A DNA stretch of 64,000 nt from a phage. How positions within the stretch are numbered: position 1 is the stretch's first letter; the number at the start of each line of letters is the position of its first letter. Shown here piece by piece: positions 15,086-20,549 of this stretch. Made by a program: the position numbers and the translations under genes. The notes under the pieces were generated by a model. It saw nothing but the letters and a program-made list of their open reading frames with translations. It did not search any database and was not told the origin of the DNA. The stretch lies in the sequence record PX880103.1. One strand, given 5' to 3'.

Positions 15086-15574
15086 TTATGCATAGAGAGC
15101 ATTGCTATAGTGTTTAATCCAACTTTCAGGAATGACTTTGTATGTTCCTAAAAATACCACGTTGTACAACTTAACGCCATCTTCTACCCATTGATCGGTA
15201 ATGTATCCACACATAGCGCGAGTATAAGCAGCCTTTCCATCATCTTTGATAAATTTAAATTCGCAAGGAGCAATGAACTTAATAGCTTGACCGAGTTTCC
15301 ACTTAAAGTCTACACCTACATGCGAAGTATCAATCGTTTCAATTCCTTTAGCGGGAACAGCTTTCAAAAACGCAGATTCAAGAAATTTCGCGCGAACATA
15401 ACCAAACTGGGGTTTAGACTTTCCATCTTTAGGAATGATACGAACTTTTACTTCAGAATCTTCATCTTTAACGCCATGCTTAAGCTGAATGCTTACAATT
15501 TCGACCAATTTTCCTGCTGCTTTAGAACGGGATTTATCAGATACACGAGCAATTTCACCAATATTAATAATCAT
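15086..15574 (-). CDS. motB: MotB-like DNA-binding protein (162 aa)
   Basis: Size and position (next after cef) match T4 motB; lysine-rich; ATG confirmed. Confidence 0.55.
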   Translation of the reverse strand: MIINIGEIARVSDKSRSKAAGKLVEIVSIQLKHGVKDEDSEVKVRIIPKDGKSKPQFGYVRAKFLESAFLKAVPAKGIETIDTSHVGVDFKWKLGQAIKFIAPCEFKFIKDDGKAAYTRAMCGYITDQWVEDGVKLYNVVFLGTYKVIPESWIKHYSNALYA

Positions 15575-15650: not shown

Positions 15651-16190
15651 TTAATTCAAAATAGCTACCACTGCACTACGAGGTACTACGCTAAAATCAC
15701 CCGCATGAACAACGTTCAGAAGTTCAACACCATCTTCAATCCATTGGTCTGTTACCCAACCACAGACCGAAATAAATGGAGTCTTGATAGCTACCGCATG
15801 AGTTAGAAGGTCAGTAGGATCAACTTCTTTGAAGAGGATAAGCTCTGCTTCAAAGACTATAGTTTTAATTACTTCATCATTATCTAAGCGATGTACTCGA
15901 ATCACGTAAGCTTTATTCTTATCATGCCAGTTACTTTTTGAAAAACTTTTAACCACAAACTCGCCTTCACCAAAAGCATTAGTCAATGCTTTATAACCCA
16001 AATTTAGTTCAGTAGTTTTAATTTCAGTTTCAACCAGTTTGTAGGTTTTGCCGATTTCAATAGCGGTAGCCATAGTAGGTTCCTTAATTTCCAGTGGTTT
16101 AACAGGGCATACATAAGTGCTTACAACATCAAAATCAATCAGTTTAGCTACCGGATTTGGTATGTATTCAGGATTATAATTAAATTTCAT
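15651..16190 (-). CDS. Hypothetical protein (179 aa), MotB paralogue by C-terminal motif
   Basis: C-terminus CGWVTDQWIEDGVELLNVV parallels MCGYITDQWVEDGVKLYNVV in the 162-aa neighbour. Confidence 0.55.
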   Translation of the reverse strand: MKFNYNPEYIPNPVAKLIDFDVVSTYVCPVKPLEIKEPTMATAIEIGKTYKLVETEIKTTELNLGYKALTNAFGEGEFVVKSFSKSNWHDKNKAYVIRVHRLDNDEVIKTIVFEAELILFKEVDPTDLLTHAVAIKTPFISVCGWVTDQWIEDGVELLNVVHAGDFSVVPRSAVVAILN

Positions 16191-16756: not shown

Positions 16757-17440
16757 TTATCGTTTTGTTGGAAGAGATAGAGGATCGCATTCTTCCTCTG
16801 ATGGAGCATCTTCGAGACCCATAGCATATCGCAAAGCATACTTCATCATCAGAATATCTTTCGCACAGTCATGAATAGAATCATGCGCAACAAATCCATC
16901 TAAGGTTCCTTTTGGAAGAGGGCACGTGGTCATATCACGAACAAGCAGAAGTGCTTCAATTCTGGTACGAATATCACGCTGATTCCAGAATTTACATGGT
17001 TCTAACTTAAATGTGTCAAGCTCATTCTCAGAAACGCCGTTAAGACGTTGAATATCGCGAATGAGATCGACTAAAATTGGAAAATCAAACGACATTCCAC
17101 GGCACCAACCTTGAGATTTCCAAGGATCGATATTATGCGCATTGATGTAATCATTAAATTTTGCAATACCATCGATAGTACTTACATCTTCATCGGATGG
17201 TGCAATATTTTTTCGAGCTTCAGGAGATTGATTTTTCCACCATTCGATAGTGCTTTTAGTAAAAAGACGATGTCCTTTTTGGCTTTTTAAATCAAATTTG
17301 ATTTTAATGCCACGTGAAACTAATTCATCGAATGTTTCAACGACTTCTGGATTAGGGTCAAAAGCAATTACAGCCAAATCAATAACAGCTGCTTTTTCAC
17401 CACTTCCCATTGTTTCAAAATCTATAATAAAATCAAACAT
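16757..17440 (-). CDS. dexA: Exonuclease A (DnaQ-like 3'-5' exonuclease)
   Basis: 227 aa as in T4 DexA; N-terminal DxE motif (DFETMG); ATG confirmed. Confidence 0.85.
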   Translation of the reverse strand: MFDFIIDFETMGSGEKAAVIDLAVIAFDPNPEVVETFDELVSRGIKIKFDLKSQKGHRLFTKSTIEWWKNQSPEARKNIAPSDEDVSTIDGIAKFNDYINAHNIDPWKSQGWCRGMSFDFPILVDLIRDIQRLNGVSENELDTFKLEPCKFWNQRDIRTRIEALLLVRDMTTCPLPKGTLDGFVAHDSIHDCAKDILMMKYALRYAMGLEDAPSEEECDPLSLPTKR

Positions 17441-17682
17441 TAAACTTTCCTCGCTAAATCGCGAATTTGACCTACAGTATAGTCTTGAATATAAACTTTA
17501 TTAATAGGTTCATCAATAAATTTTGCCATAGATTCAATATCTTTTTGCATCTCTTCAAGACTGTATATTATCTTTAAAGCTTTTTCGCGAATAGTAATAT
17601 TTTCAGGACCAGAATTTTTCTCAATGACAGCTTTAACATTTGTCATAAGAGATTTAAACTGACACCAACTTAATTCAATCAT
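17440..17682 (-). CDS. Hypothetical small protein (about 80 aa), member of a tandem trio
   Basis: ATG at 17682 chosen (track start at 17715 overlaps upstream gene by 41 nt); C-terminus IQDYTVGQIRDLARKV resembles the neighbour. Confidence 0.45.
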   Translation of the reverse strand: MIELSWCQFKSLMTNVKAVIEKNSGPENITIREKALKIIYSLEEMQKDIESMAKFIDEPINKVYIQDYTVGQIRDLARKV

Positions 17683-17920
17683 TAATAACCGCCTTATAAA
17701 GATGGCTAATTTCACCTAAAACATAATCACTGATTGTAACAGTTTTTACTTCACCACAAAAGAATTCTAACGCAATTAAATCTCGTTCAATTTCTTCTAA
17801 TTGAAGCATTAACTTGCCTGATTCAGTTTTCACGTTTTTGCGATTTTTACTATAAGCTAATTCATAAATTTCATTTACTTTATCTTGAAGAAGATAAAAC
17901 TGATCTTTAGTTATTTCCAC
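17675..17920 (-). CDS. Hypothetical small protein (about 81 aa), member of a tandem trio
   Basis: GTG at 17920 with GAGGAAG SD (track start is TTG); C-terminus TISDYVLGEISHLYKAVIND. Confidence 0.45.
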   Translation of the reverse strand: MEITKDQFYLLQDKVNEIYELAYSKNRKNVKTESGKLMLQLEEIERDLIALEFFCGEVKTVTISDYVLGEISHLYKAVIND

Positions 17921-18167
17921 GAATAGCTTCCTCAAATTTAATTAGTAATTTACAGACACTTTCATCTAGTGTAATTACCGTATCTGTATTACTGTGATAT
18001 GATTGTTTTTCAATTCGTTTAATTGCTAATATAGTATCACTTATAAGATAAAGCTTATGAAGGAGCTCAGCTCCTGTTACCATAACATCGAGATTATCTT
18101 GCTTATTAGTATGCTTCCTTATACCATCTATTAGACGATTTAAATATTTTGAATTGATGTTAATCAT
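17907..18167 (-). CDS. Hypothetical small protein (86 aa), member of a tandem trio
   Basis: ORF track; similar length and charge pattern to the two downstream ORFs. Confidence 0.5.
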   Translation of the reverse strand: MININSKYLNRLIDGIRKHTNKQDNLDVMVTGAELLHKLYLISDTILAIKRIEKQSYHSNTDTVITLDESVCKLLIKFEEAIRGNN

Positions 18168-18173
18168 ATAGCC

Positions 18174-19493
18174 TCACACATAAAACACATCATAACGACC
18201 ACGGGTAACACCAACATAAAGAAGTTGTTGAGCTAATTCAGCATCTGCATAATGAATACAAGGCGTATAAATGAAAGCACGGTCTACAGACATACCCTGA
18301 GCTTTATGGAATGTTGATGCAGGAAGTGCTTTCACTTTACTAAACTGTGATTTAGCATCCCAAAAATCACTCCACGGAGCTTTTCCGCCTTTGTTCCAAT
18401 TTTTATAAGTTTCTGCCGTTTTACCTAAAAATAAGTTAAACTTATACAGCTCTTCATCAGATGAAATTATTTTAATCTTTTCACGATAATATTCATCATC
18501 GCCGTAAGTTTCTACTGTTAAATCCCAATGACGAATTAAGTATTCTCCAGAAACACCACGAGCTTTAACAAAGGTTGATGTATACTCTGCTTCTATAATA
18601 CGAACTAATTGTCCGTTATTAAAAATAATTTCTGACACAGGCTTTCCATCAATTTTATATGTTTTAATTAATGGTTCCTGCATTACAATAATTTCACCGA
18701 CAATAAAATCTTTATCAGTTTCAAAAATCTTTTTACGAATAATGCTATTTAACTTATCAACAGATTTATTCGTAAATGCCATTACACGATTTTCAAACAA
18801 ATCATCTAGTGATTTTACGATTGAAAAATAATTTACCATAAAATCACGTAAAGCGGTATCACCAGTAAATCCACGTACTCCATGCCCGTCAACAACTTTA
18901 TCATAAATCCACTTACCGTTGCGAACATCAGTAGCTACATCAATAATAGGAGCATTACTGCGTTTAACTTCAGTGAGTTCACACTGATAAAAATCTTTAT
19001 GTGTAAAGAATGGACTGATATAAGCAGTGTTTTCTCCTGGGTCAACAGGTCTGATTTGCTTATTATCACCTATTCCAATTATAGTACACCACGGCGGGAT
19101 AGTTGAAAGCAGAATTTTAAATAGCTTTCTATCATACATTGACACTTCATCGCAGATTAATACCCTGCATTTAGCTAAATCTGGTACTTCCTTCTGCTCA
19201 AAGAGGACATTTTCTTCATATGTTACCGGGTTAATTTTAAGAATACTATGAATAGTACTTGCTTCTTTCCCTGATAGTTTTGAAAGAATCTTTTTAGCCG
19301 CATGAGTAGGAGCTGCTAAAATAATACCAGTTTCACCCGTAGATATTAAAGCTTCAATGATGAACTTAGTAAGAGTAGTCTTACCAGTACCAGCAGGTCC
19401 ATTAATAGTTACATGATGTTTCTTTTCTTTAATAGCCTTCATAACAATGTTAAAGGCATTTTTCTGGCCTTCGGTCAAATCATCAAATGTCAT
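18174..19493 (-). CDS. dda: Dda DNA helicase (SF1B)
   Basis: 439 aa as in T4 Dda; Walker A GPAGTGKTT near N-terminus; ATG confirmed. Confidence 0.9.
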   Translation of the reverse strand: MTFDDLTEGQKNAFNIVMKAIKEKKHHVTINGPAGTGKTTLTKFIIEALISTGETGIILAAPTHAAKKILSKLSGKEASTIHSILKINPVTYEENVLFEQKEVPDLAKCRVLICDEVSMYDRKLFKILLSTIPPWCTIIGIGDNKQIRPVDPGENTAYISPFFTHKDFYQCELTEVKRSNAPIIDVATDVRNGKWIYDKVVDGHGVRGFTGDTALRDFMVNYFSIVKSLDDLFENRVMAFTNKSVDKLNSIIRKKIFETDKDFIVGEIIVMQEPLIKTYKIDGKPVSEIIFNNGQLVRIIEAEYTSTFVKARGVSGEYLIRHWDLTVETYGDDEYYREKIKIISSDEELYKFNLFLGKTAETYKNWNKGGKAPWSDFWDAKSQFSKVKALPASTFHKAQGMSVDRAFIYTPCIHYADAELAQQLLYVGVTRGRYDVFYV

Positions 19494-19802: not shown

Positions 19803-20549
19803 TTATCCTCGGATAAGTTTAAAAATTGAACAATTTAGCGGGTATCCTCTTTTCAGTTTAAGTTTATCAATAAAAGACAAATTTTGATACCGCTCTACAC
19901 CTTGAATAATTTTATCACACATATCATATTGCATTTCTGCTTCTGACAACTTTTTCACAATTTTCCAATCCGAGCCTTTAAGAAGAACGTTCAATTTAAC
20001 AACTTCAGCACCTTCAGCTATGCGAGAACCATCAATACGTGCTTTAAGTGCTATAATTCTTAGCTTAATGTCAGAGGTCTGTTTTGATTTAGAAAGCTGA
20101 GAAATGTGCTCAATTCGGTTTTCACGTTTTTTCTGTATAGCTTTAATTTGATTATAAGTCTTTTTGATTTTAGCCCATTTCTTTTCATCTAAATTTAGTT
20201 TATGAACTTTTTTCGCAGATGAACGACCAATTCGCAAAGCAAACAAATCACGCTTTTCGATCAACTCTTCTAAAGTATAATCAGAACGAAATGTATTATA
20301 CTTTTTCTTTACTGCAATAACATTCCCTTTAATGTATCCAACGTTATTATCAAAACGTTCTAATGATAATTTCTCTCCTTCAATACGATTATCAAAAGGT
20401 TCTCCTGAATAGGCACAAACTTTTTGATCTAAAATGTTCTTAATGTAATTGAAGTCTAAGTTAAAATCTTTAGAACGTCTTTTTGCAGATGCCTGAGTAT
20501 GCTCTAAACGACGTTTAATTTTACGAATTTGATTATTAGACAGCTTCAT
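19803..20549 (-). CDS. srd: Srd-like basic protein (248 aa)
   Basis: Position between dda.1 and modA and size fit T4 srd (from memory, unverified); very lysine/arginine rich. Confidence 0.45.
   Translation of the reverse strand: MKLSNNQIRKIKRRLEHTQASAKRRSKDFNLDFNYIKNILDQKVCAYSGEPFDNRIEGEKLSLERFDNNVGYIKGNVIAVKKKYNTFRSDYTLEELIEKRDLFALRIGRSSAKKVHKLNLDEKKWAKIKKTYNQIKAIQKKRENRIEHISQLSKSKQTSDIKLRIIALKARIDGSRIAEGAEVVKLNVLLKGSDWKIVKKLSEAEMQYDMCDKIIQGVERYQNLSFIDKLKLKRGYPLNCSIFKLIRG

Follow-up and report, generated by a model that had tools for sequence, protein, structure and literature searches.

Several T4-like phages carry small genes between dda, which encodes the Dda helicase, and dexA, the gene of exonuclease A. 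Two of these, dexA.1 and dexA.2, have to our knowledge stood on the T4 map for decades without an assigned function, and we found no characterization of the T4 products in the searchable literature. The locus considered here lies in a 64,000-nucleotide stretch of a Tequatrovirus (T4-like) genome (record PX880103.1; the window hereafter), in which a third small gene, ORF3, accompanies the pair. An earlier reading made from the letters of this DNA (the sequence-only reading) took the three for paralogues, and for a recent local triplication of an accessory gene. The locus therefore poses the questions of whether all three genes are kin, when the copies parted, and what small proteins of this kind might do beside two DNA enzymes.

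The genes follow each other on the minus strand in the order dda, ORF3, dexA.2, dexA.1 and dexA, with every junction either overlapping or 6 nt wide (Table 1). The 6-nt gap separates dda from ORF3, and the overlaps measure 14 nt between ORF3 and dexA.2, 8 nt between dexA.2 and dexA.1 (ATGATTGA) and 1 nt between dexA.1 and dexA (TAATG). Three consecutive small ORFs of about 80-86 codons with overlapping or coupled starts had been described between dexA and dda, one of them opening with GTG behind a GAGGAAG Shine-Dalgarno (SD) sequence; the ORFs, of 80, 81 and 86 codons, lie exactly at the coordinates given, the GTG being that of dexA.2, with a 6-nt spacer. T4 and KMB42 are annotated with identical gene models, GTG start included. 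The dexA.1 allele of KMB42 is frameshifted.

Table 1. Genes and ribosome-binding signals of the dda-dexA run, in window coordinates
Feature	Position	Strand	Remarks
dda, Dda SF1B DNA helicase, 439 aa	18174..19493	-	ORF; annotated dda at the homologous T4 and KMB42 position; heads the coupled run
Shine-Dalgarno GAGG for ORF3	18172..18175	-	Overlaps the dda stop TGA (18174-18176); 4 nt (CTAT) to the ATG
ORF3, ATG start, 86 aa	17907..18167	-	phrog_4967; 'RB14ncORF017c' in RB51; dda-proximal, most diverged family member
Shine-Dalgarno GAGGAAG for dexA.2	17927..17933	-	Within the ORF3 3' end; 6 nt ahead of the GTG
dexA.2, GTG start (17920-17918), 81 aa	17675..17920	-	14-nt overlap with ORF3; acidic, net charge -5.4
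SD-like AAGGCGG for dexA.1	17689..17695	-	Within the dexA.2 3' end; apparently a poorer match with longer spacing than the other SDs
dexA.1, ATG start, 80 aa	17440..17682	-	8-nt overlap with dexA.2 (ATGATTGA); stop overlaps the dexA ATG (TAATG)
Shine-Dalgarno GAGGAAA for dexA	17446..17452	-	Within the dexA.1 3' end
dexA, exonuclease A, 227 aa	16757..17440	-	ORF and T4/KMB42 annotation; ends the coupled run

Because the start codons along this run overlap or abut the preceding gene, and the SD sequences lie inside that gene, the proteins of the array are probably made by translational coupling, by which the amounts of the small proteins would probably be tied to those of Dda and DexA. No intrinsic terminator was predicted on the coding strand anywhere in the run dda.1-dda-ORF3-dexA.2-dexA.1-dexA; a scan for sigma-70 promoters and terminators did no better than on shuffled sequences and left the coding strand within the array free of terminators, and an Rfam search returned no match. 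In T4, dda.1 to dexA.1 have been reported as a single middle transcript, and the DexA.2 protein has been seen by proteomics (PMC10097602).

The three small ORFs are genuine genes that encode proteins. All three are under purifying selection, far weaker than that acting on their neighbors: dN/dS is 0.19 for ORF3, 0.12 for dexA.2 and 0.23 for dexA.1, about ten times the values of dda (0.02) and dexA (0.01). The pair dexA.1 and dexA.2 runs through the whole set of about 500 Tequatrovirus records, dexA.2 being intact in about that many. An intact ORF3 occurs in 309 phage records at 90-100% identity, always between dda and dexA.2; within Tequatrovirus it is carried by 306 of 494 records (about 62%) and lacking from the other 188 (about 38%), and T4 and T2 are without it. 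Genomes of the T4 type and those with ORF3 differ here by a single 232-bp indel, which we take to be a deletion that the T4 type has undergone; T4 keeps the GAGGAAG SD of dexA.2, situated in the 3' end of ORF3, though the rest of that gene is deleted. Together with the zero to three copies that the interval holds in different phages, the patchy presence of ORF3 and the elevated dN/dS bear out the accessory character that had been proposed for these genes.

As to kinship, DexA.1 and DexA.2 are clear paralogues as judged by their sequences. They share 28% identity over 83 aa (BLASTP, E 3e-9), a similarity that extends beyond composition, and their families align by hhalign with a probability of 97.8% (E 8.7e-13). 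Both have significant full-length matches to phrog_1700, DexA.2 to positions 1-80 (E 1.3e-47) and DexA.1 to positions 73-159 (E 4.3e-43), and their orthologues, along with the close relatives returned, carry the precomputed label PF26837.

ORF3 is far more distant. It has no direct BLASTP similarity to DexA.1 or DexA.2, its hhalign probability against either is below 1%, it does not match phrog_1700, and its orthologues bear no precomputed Pfam domain, PF26837 included. Since these tests against the DexA.1/DexA.2 family fail, we place ORF3 only in a wider superfamily of the dda-dexA slot, composed of phrog_1700, phrog_5263 and phrog_4967, in which a chain of profile-profile matches joins all three genes. 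ORF3 matches phrog_4967 (E 8.4e-59) and phrog_5263 (E 1.8e-5) over its full length, and DexA.2 reaches phrog_5263 at 5.6e-8. Matched by hhalign to phrog_5263, the group of dda-proximal genes from other genera, ORF3 gave a probability of 95% (E 3.3e-8) and a score of 44; column shuffling, done 150 times, gave at most 20.2, and reversal gave 10.6. The same group finds ORF3 at E 1.5e-6 to 3.3e-8, DexA.2 at 7e-12 and DexA.1 at 3.2e-8. When all 442 six-frame ORFs of the window are scored on a family HMM built without it, ORF3 comes third with 12.3 bits, the following one having 6.6, and is the best non-member. On the family HMM the window copy scores 12.4 bits and the highest-scoring of 2000 shuffles 11.3, and ORF3 orthologues attain 19.5-20.5 bits on the model built without ORF3; one orthologue matches VR20 gp014 in BLASTP at about 4e-5. 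A tblastn search of 50,697 phage records with ORF3 recovered Tequatrovirus orthologues only, and a protein search for homologues yielded four clusters, all >90% identical. With the direct comparisons negative, the link depends on the intermediate dda-proximal group, through which ORF3 is a remote paralogue of DexA.1 and DexA.2; in a MAFFT alignment with intermediates it is 9% identical to DexA.1. The idea of three paralogues is thus secure for the pair and holds for ORF3 only at this remove.

A C-terminal motif of the form (I/V)x(I/L)xDYxxGxIxxL is found in DexA.1, DexA.2 and the JS98 and VR20 proteins, and is degenerate in CkP1_0015 (NDKIAEQI) and ORF3 (LDESVCKLL), where just the Asp and the hydrophobic positions remain. 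Of the three window proteins to which the sequence-only reading had ascribed the xDYxxGxIxxL signature, only the pair possesses it; ORF3 has ITLDESVCKLLIKF, with the Asp and hydrophobic spacing kept and the Tyr and Gly lost. The common charge pattern that it had also noted is not confirmed, net charges being -5.4 for DexA.2, -0.5 for DexA.1 and +0.8 for ORF3.

The AlphaFold models of ORF3 (pLDDT 85.6; E2-5, H6-22, H26-52, E64-67, H69-84) and DexA.2 (pLDDT 92.2; E2-4, H5-24, H28-55, E60-62, H65-79) have a β1-α1-α2-β2-α3 topology in common. DexA.1 presumably shares this fold, since Foldseek superposes on DexA.2, at TM 0.87, a 79-aa relative that is 30% identical to it. Starting from ORF3, Foldseek retrieves DexA.2 of BECP11 (TM 0.69/0.73) along with slot genes from CC31 and fHe-Yen9-01; starting from DexA.2, an ORF3 orthologue is absent from the best 50 matches. 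In these predicted models the family consists of ~9-10 kDa three-helix bundles with a short two-stranded bridge, a generic and common fold that has no catalytic signature and can arise convergently.

In other T4-like genomes the same slot, between dda and dexA, on the same strand and coupled, is occupied in T4, JS98, VR20, CkP1, CC31, fHe-Yen9-01 and Acj9 as it is in the window. A survey of such genomes, proposed along with the original observation, thus finds zero to three members: none in RB69, where dda and dexA lie 9 nt apart with no small gene between them, one in JS98, VR20 and CC31, two in T4, CkP1, Yen9-01 and Acj9, and three in the source phage. The position is kept in Tequatrovirus, Dhakavirus, Gaprivervirus, Karamvirus and Tegunavirus, and also in the Acinetobacter phage Acj9 of another subfamily (Twarogvirinae), whose two slot ORFs have the lengths of its two Foldseek matches, 71 and 92 aa. 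In the Aeromonas phage Aeh1, in which dexA does not adjoin dda, a search of the first 70 kb turned up no dda; its two weak Foldseek matches, Q76YD5 and Q76YD6, could not be placed in the genome. An exhaustive profile search of 1.84 billion representatives gave 15 matches at E up to 0.001, of which ~8 are by inspection full-length family members and the remainder fragments, chimaeras or long repetitive proteins; with only these to be had, the family is not extendable by sequence.

These genomes also date the copies. DexA.1 is nearer to the sole slot gene of JS98 (45% identity) than to DexA.2, and ORF3 resembles its positional counterparts, the dda-proximal genes in Gaprivervirus, Karamvirus and Tegunavirus, more than it does its own neighbors. 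At the nucleotide level the three copies show neither repeats nor any remaining similarity. In view of these closer relatives elsewhere, the low identities and the lack of a DNA repeat, we infer that the copies separated before the genera diverged; the duplication is old, and other genera have orthologues of the individual copies in this slot. The suggestion of a recent duplication, or of a simple local triplication, does not survive identities of 28% between DexA.1 and DexA.2 and 9% between ORF3 and DexA.1.

Direct pointers to function are scarce. The three genes have no match in NCBIfam or in a local copy of Pfam that does not include PF26837, a PDB sequence search gave nothing below E 0.1, and PADLOC, a partial test as it covers defence systems and not anti-defence proteins, had no match. 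Many GenBank/RefSeq records call DexA.1 or DexA.2 'exonuclease' or 'dextranase'; these 80-aa helical bundles match no such entry in Pfam, NCBIfam or PDB, and the labels are artefacts that arose as the locus name 'dexA.n' was propagated. The account that we favor, and consider probable as a whole, is that of an old small-protein family seated in the dda-dexA slot, whose diverged copies act as non-enzymatic protein binders. Its mechanistic core is more tentative: lacking catalytic and nucleic-acid-binding signatures, and with DexA.2 acidic, the proteins may bind other proteins stoichiometrically early to midway in infection. Each diverged copy might then have a different partner, whether a factor or nuclease of the host, part of a defence or part of the phage DNA-metabolism machinery, and the small proteins would be dispensable accessories rather than obligatory cofactors of Dda or DexA. 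Against a role in binding host targets, it may be said that two subfamilies strictly keep these genes in the interval from dda to dexA, which could reflect a functional link to those enzymes.

That link is the substance of a rather unlikely but substantial alternative, in which the small proteins are dedicated subunits or regulators that load, target or restrain Dda or DexA, with paralogues tuned to each enzyme and stoichiometry set by coupling. The conserved position in five genera and Acj9, the coupling of every junction and the transcript that the T4 genes share with dda all speak for it. However, dda and dexA adjoin directly in RB69, Dda and DexA are nearly identical in the 38% of Tequatrovirus records that have no ORF3, and the small genes evolve with a dN/dS some ten times that of the enzymes. 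Moreover, purified Dda and DexA are each active alone in vitro. A different and still less likely extension holds that the slot is a conserved diversification site of three-helix-bundle inhibitors across Straboviridae, each copy having its own host nuclease or defence component to neutralize, and certain acidic members perhaps mimicking nucleic acids; the ORF3 polymorphism (62% versus 38% of Tequatrovirus) would then reflect host-range selection.

The remaining alternatives concern the genes themselves. It is improbable that ORF3 is unrelated to the pair and resembles it by a convergent helical bundle and composition: the missing direct BLASTP and hhalign signals, the missing PF26837 label, its place outside the best 50 in the reciprocal Foldseek search and the narrow lead of the window copy over shuffles would agree with this, but the hhalign score to the dda-proximal group is far above its controls, phrog_5263 is matched significantly, the orthologues score well on the ORF3-free HMM, where ORF3 leads all non-members of the window, and the order of secondary structures, the slot and the dda-proximal position are those of its closest relatives. 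Recent triplication with rapid divergence within the source lineage would account for three adjoining, similar-sized genes of one superfamily, yet it is already contradicted by the weak resemblance of the pair, the insignificant direct similarity of ORF3, the lack of a DNA repeat, the nearer kin of DexA.1 and ORF3 in other genera and the ubiquity of dexA.1 and dexA.2 in Tequatrovirus, and we give it next to no credence. Hardly more plausible is that the ORFs serve mainly as spacers whose translation hands ribosomes on from dda to dexA, their protein products being irrelevant. All junctions are indeed coupled with downstream SDs inside the preceding ORF, and T4 retains the end of ORF3 that bears the dexA.2 SD; against this, selection preserves the amino acid sequences, RB69 couples dda to dexA without a spacer ORF, and confidently predicted folds are conserved across genera at very low sequence identity.

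The array is a neat but unexceptional example of an old accessory family with variable copy number, and no new kind of biology. What it adds is that dexA.1 and dexA.2 form one ancient family with ORF3, which T4 lacks, and that this family has a defined predicted fold and fills a conserved, variable-copy slot between two DNA enzymes in at least two phage subfamilies. Slots with zero, one, two and three copies, and alleles with and without ORF3, provide natural genotypes that can be used for finding the function.

Among known systems the nearest is T4 itself. Its DexA.1 (NP_049630) and DexA.2 (NP_049631) are orthologues of the window genes, in agreement as to position, lengths of 80 and 81 aa, GTG start and overlaps; DexA.2 is 86% identical, DexA.1 differs at 9 of 80 residues, and nothing substantive sets the two phages apart here except the extra upstream ORF3. 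ORF3 belongs to phrog_4967 ('RB14ncORF017c'), an unannotated family known from RB51, RB14, T6, KNP5 and about 300 other Tequatrovirus records; the resources searched contain no prior link from it to DexA.1/DexA.2, which is made in the present analysis. The members of phrog_5263 (VR20 gp014, CkP1_0015, CC31p016 and fHe-Yen9-01 gp24) have the slot, the dda-proximal position and the size of ORF3, hhalign probabilities of 95% to ORF3 and 97.5% to DexA.2, and a fold match by Foldseek; they differ in being below about 22% identical to ORF3 and in coming from genera with one or two slot genes, not three. T4 Arn and T7 Ocr are small acidic early phage proteins that act by binding or mimicry. DexA.1 and ORF3 are unlike them in not being acidic; as a lead only, the slot proteins may be said to resemble Arn and Ocr in their small size, early or middle expression, absence of an enzymatic motif and accessory distribution, and DexA.2 and several relatives also in their acidity (-5 to -9).

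Three minus-strand ORFs lie between dda and dexA in the window, and the sequence-only reading had described them correctly, including the GTG start and the GAGGAAG sequence preceding it. The same three gene models are annotated in the GenBank entries of KMB42, A6-6, G10400, RB51 and T6, and those of dexA.1 and dexA.2, GTG start included, match the T4 annotation; the 1-kb stretch around the array matches many Tequatrovirus genomes at 97-98% identity. Only 6 nt separate dda from ORF3, the dda-proximal small gene, whose SD (GAGG) overlaps the dda stop. The subsequent junctions are overlaps of 14 nt (ORF3/dexA.2), 8 nt (dexA.2/dexA.1, ATGATTGA) and 1 nt (dexA.1/dexA, TAATG). These junctions indicate translational coupling, and the coding strand lacks any predicted intrinsic terminator inside the array, which consists of real co-transcribed small genes.

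Coordinates of the small-gene array and its flanks in the window
Feature	Position	Strand	Remarks
dda (Dda helicase)	18174-19493	minus	upstream flank
ORF3	17907-18167	minus	ATG start, 86 aa
SD of dexA.2 (GAGGAAG)	17927-17933	minus	6-nt spacer to GTG
dexA.2	17675-17920	minus	GTG start at 17920-17918, 81 aa
dexA.1	17440-17682	minus	ATG start, 80 aa
dexA (exonuclease A, DexA)	16757-17440	minus	downstream flank

The expression literature is sparse and concerns T4 only. T4 dda.1, dda, dexA.2 and dexA.1 are reported to form one middle-phase transcript with a single start ~101 nt upstream of dda.1 (bioRxiv 10.1101/2024.04.04.588121). A CBASS study (PMC10097602) detected DexA.2, described as 'an uncharacterized 9.5 kDa protein', in T4-infected cells, with cGAS conjugated to its Lys5. 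No paper found in the searchable literature assigns a function to these genes. At the position of the T4 start site, within the 3' end of srd, the window (19902-19945, minus) reads GAAATGCAATATGATATGTGTGATAAAAT, which plausibly holds a -10 element (TAAAAT) and an upstream, imperfect MotA-box-like TGCAAT.

DexA.1 and DexA.2 are clearly paralogues by sequence comparison: they share 28% identity over 83 residues (BLASTP with composition adjustment, E 3e-9), their family alignments match over 77 columns (hhalign, 97.8% probability, E 8.7e-13), both hit phrog_1700, and relatives of each carry the precomputed Pfam label PF26837. The proposed paralogy of all three genes thus holds directly for this pair, but ORF3 joins it through intermediates only. 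ORF3 shows no BLASTP similarity to either neighbour, no match to phrog_1700 and no direct hhalign relationship to DexA.1 or DexA.2, and its orthologues lack the PF26837 label. The C-terminal motif xDYxxGxIxxL, said to be common to the array, is present in two of the three genes, with ORF3 reading ITLDESVCKLLIKF instead; the net charges also differ, being -5.4 (DexA.2), -0.5 (DexA.1) and +0.8 (ORF3).

The bridge is provided by phrog_5263, a group of genes that immediately follow dda in further genera of the Tevenvirinae (VR20 gp014, CkP1_0015, CC31p016 and fHe-Yen9-01 gp24). ORF3 matches phrog_5263 over its full length (E 1.8e-5), DexA.2 also matches it (E 5.6e-8), and an ORF3 orthologue compared with VR20 gp014 by BLASTP gives E ~4e-5. 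In hhalign the ORF3 alignment matches this group over 75 columns with 90-95% probability (E 1.5e-6 to 3.3e-8) and a score of 44, against 10.6 for the reversed alignment and at most 20.2 in 150 column shuffles, and the group is in turn homologous to DexA.2 (7e-12) and DexA.1 (3.2e-8). With a family HMM from which ORF3 sequences were left out, orthologues of ORF3 reach 19.5-20.5 bits; the window ORF3 itself reaches 12.4 bits, and 2000 shuffles reach at most 11.3. When the same HMM is run against all 442 ORFs in the six frames of the 64-kb window, ORF3 ranks third behind the two true members, with 12.3 bits against 6.6 for the next-best ORF. By these profile comparisons, ORF3 is linked to the DexA.1/DexA.2 family. 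The AlphaFold2 models of DexA.2 (pLDDT 92.2) and ORF3 (pLDDT 85.6, from a shallow alignment) are confident and have the same predicted order of elements: a short strand at the N-terminus is followed by two long helices, then by another short strand and a final helix.

The duplication had been proposed to be recent, which these relationships contradict. No nucleotide-level repeat is left among the three genes, DexA.1 shares 45% identity with the only slot gene of JS98 against 28% with DexA.2, and ORF3 resembles the genes next to dda in other genera more closely than it resembles DexA.1 or DexA.2; the copies therefore split before these genera diverged. By position, ORF3 is best matched with the dda-proximal gene found elsewhere. 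The interval between dda and dexA is empty in RB69 (Mosigvirus; spacing 9 nt), holds one gene in JS98 (Dhakavirus; DexA.1-like), VR20 (Gaprivervirus; phrog_5263 type) and CC31 (Karamvirus), two in CkP1 (Karamvirus), fHe-Yen9-01 (Tegunavirus), T4 and T2, and three in the window phage, T6, RB51 and ~300 others. Acj9, an Acinetobacter phage of another subfamily (Twarogvirinae), has two ORFs of 71 and 92 aa in this slot (locus L016, 9782-10275), the lengths of the Foldseek matches E5EPF5 and E5EPF6 retrieved with the DexA.2 and ORF3 models. Their sequence similarity to the family is nearly gone, the best hhalign result for the pair being a weak alignment of the dda-proximal gene with the intermediate group (E 2.6e-4). 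The dexA-proximal genes of CkP1 (L005, 2634-2864) and fHe-Yen9-01 (L013, 7180-7410), both 76 aa and of phrog_18278, have the size and slot of the family and no significant sequence link to it (hhalign E 0.004, 19 columns). Judged by sequence, the family is very small: when 1.84 billion representative proteins were searched exhaustively with a profile, 15 matched at E <=0.001, and ~8 of these look like full-length members. The 64-kb window holds no further copy.

The dda-dexA.2 spacing is 21 nt in T4 (L002, 3890-3910) against 253 nt in the window (ORF3 interval 17907-18173), a difference of 232 bp. The T4 junction, ...TTTTATGTATGATTAAATTTGAGGAAGCTATTCGTG, retains the last ~35 nt of ORF3, which bear the dexA.2 SD; because what T4 kept is coding sequence from the 3' end of ORF3, we read the indel as a deletion. 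T4 formally keeps a 12-codon reading frame, MIKFEEAIRGNN*, containing that SD. Mapped onto T6, the breakpoints fall within short direct repeats. These can be taken as TGA, found at the dda stop and at ...TTGATTAAATTT, or equally well as TGATTAA, found at codons 1-3 and 75-77 of ORF3. Of 494 Tequatrovirus records, 188 (T4, T2 and 186 others) contain the T4 junction as one contiguous stretch, and the remaining 306 have ORF3. The junction matches listed are 96-100% identical over the 81-nt probe, consistent with a single event that has since spread. Two further alleles were seen. In ime09 (L006, 1748-2227; homologous to window 17440-17920) a 1-nt deletion within the 8-nt overlap fuses dexA.2 and dexA.1 into one 159-aa ORF (...YKAVLMIELSL...). 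This tandem fusion may be genuine or may stem from a sequencing error; the record accounts for the 160 positions of the phrog_1700 profile (DexA.2 1-80, DexA.1 73-159). In KMB42 dexA.1 (L001, 1634-1882; homologous to window 17440-17682) a 1-nt deletion close to the 3' end changes the C-terminus to ...DLARKFNV* and extends the dexA overlap to 8 nt.

Pooled pairwise Nei-Gojobori dN/dS values over 6-8 genomes, descriptive since the pairs are non-independent, are 0.19 for ORF3, 0.12 for dexA.2 and 0.23 for dexA.1, and 0.01 and 0.02 for the flanking dexA and dda. DexA.1 substitutions are concentrated in the first helix and first loop, whereas its C-terminal half, residues 46-79, does not vary among the sampled genomes. 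The three genes belong to a single old family whose fold is a generic helical bundle, whose copy number varies and whose constraint is relaxed. The small proteins carry no enzymatic or nucleic-acid-binding signature and some family members are strongly acidic; the favoured, though tentative, reading is that they act as stoichiometric protein binders, with diverged copies recognizing different partners. That these partners are Dda and DexA themselves would fit the very conserved slot position; however, the genes behave as accessories and RB69 does without them, making a dedicated role of this kind unlikely. The same two observations favour host factors or defence proteins as the partners of such binders.

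DexA.1 and DexA.2 are commonly labelled 'exonuclease', 'dextranase', 'tail sheath stabilizer' or 'tail assembly protein' in GenBank/RefSeq. No family, structure or fold search supports these labels, which look like propagations from the locus name dexA.n. Just downstream of dexA lies a second tandem pair with a common domain: MotB (15086-15574, minus, 162 aa) and a 179-aa ORF in the motB.1 position (15651-16190, minus; T4 motB.1 has 119 aa) resemble each other in a C-terminal segment, with 56% identity across 32 aa (BLASTP E 1e-12; GYITDQWVEDGVKLYNVV / GWVTDQWIEDGVELLNVV).

The finding is sound but modest, the original observation being essentially right and 'recent' wrong. dexA.1 and dexA.2 have long been annotated in T4 and are grouped by current family resources, and hundreds of genomes list ORF3 as a hypothetical protein. 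What appears to be new is the placement of ORF3 in the superfamily of DexA.1 and DexA.2, the predicted fold common to family members, the slot of zero to three copies reaching Twarogvirinae, and the two-allele indel behind the missing ORF3 of T4.
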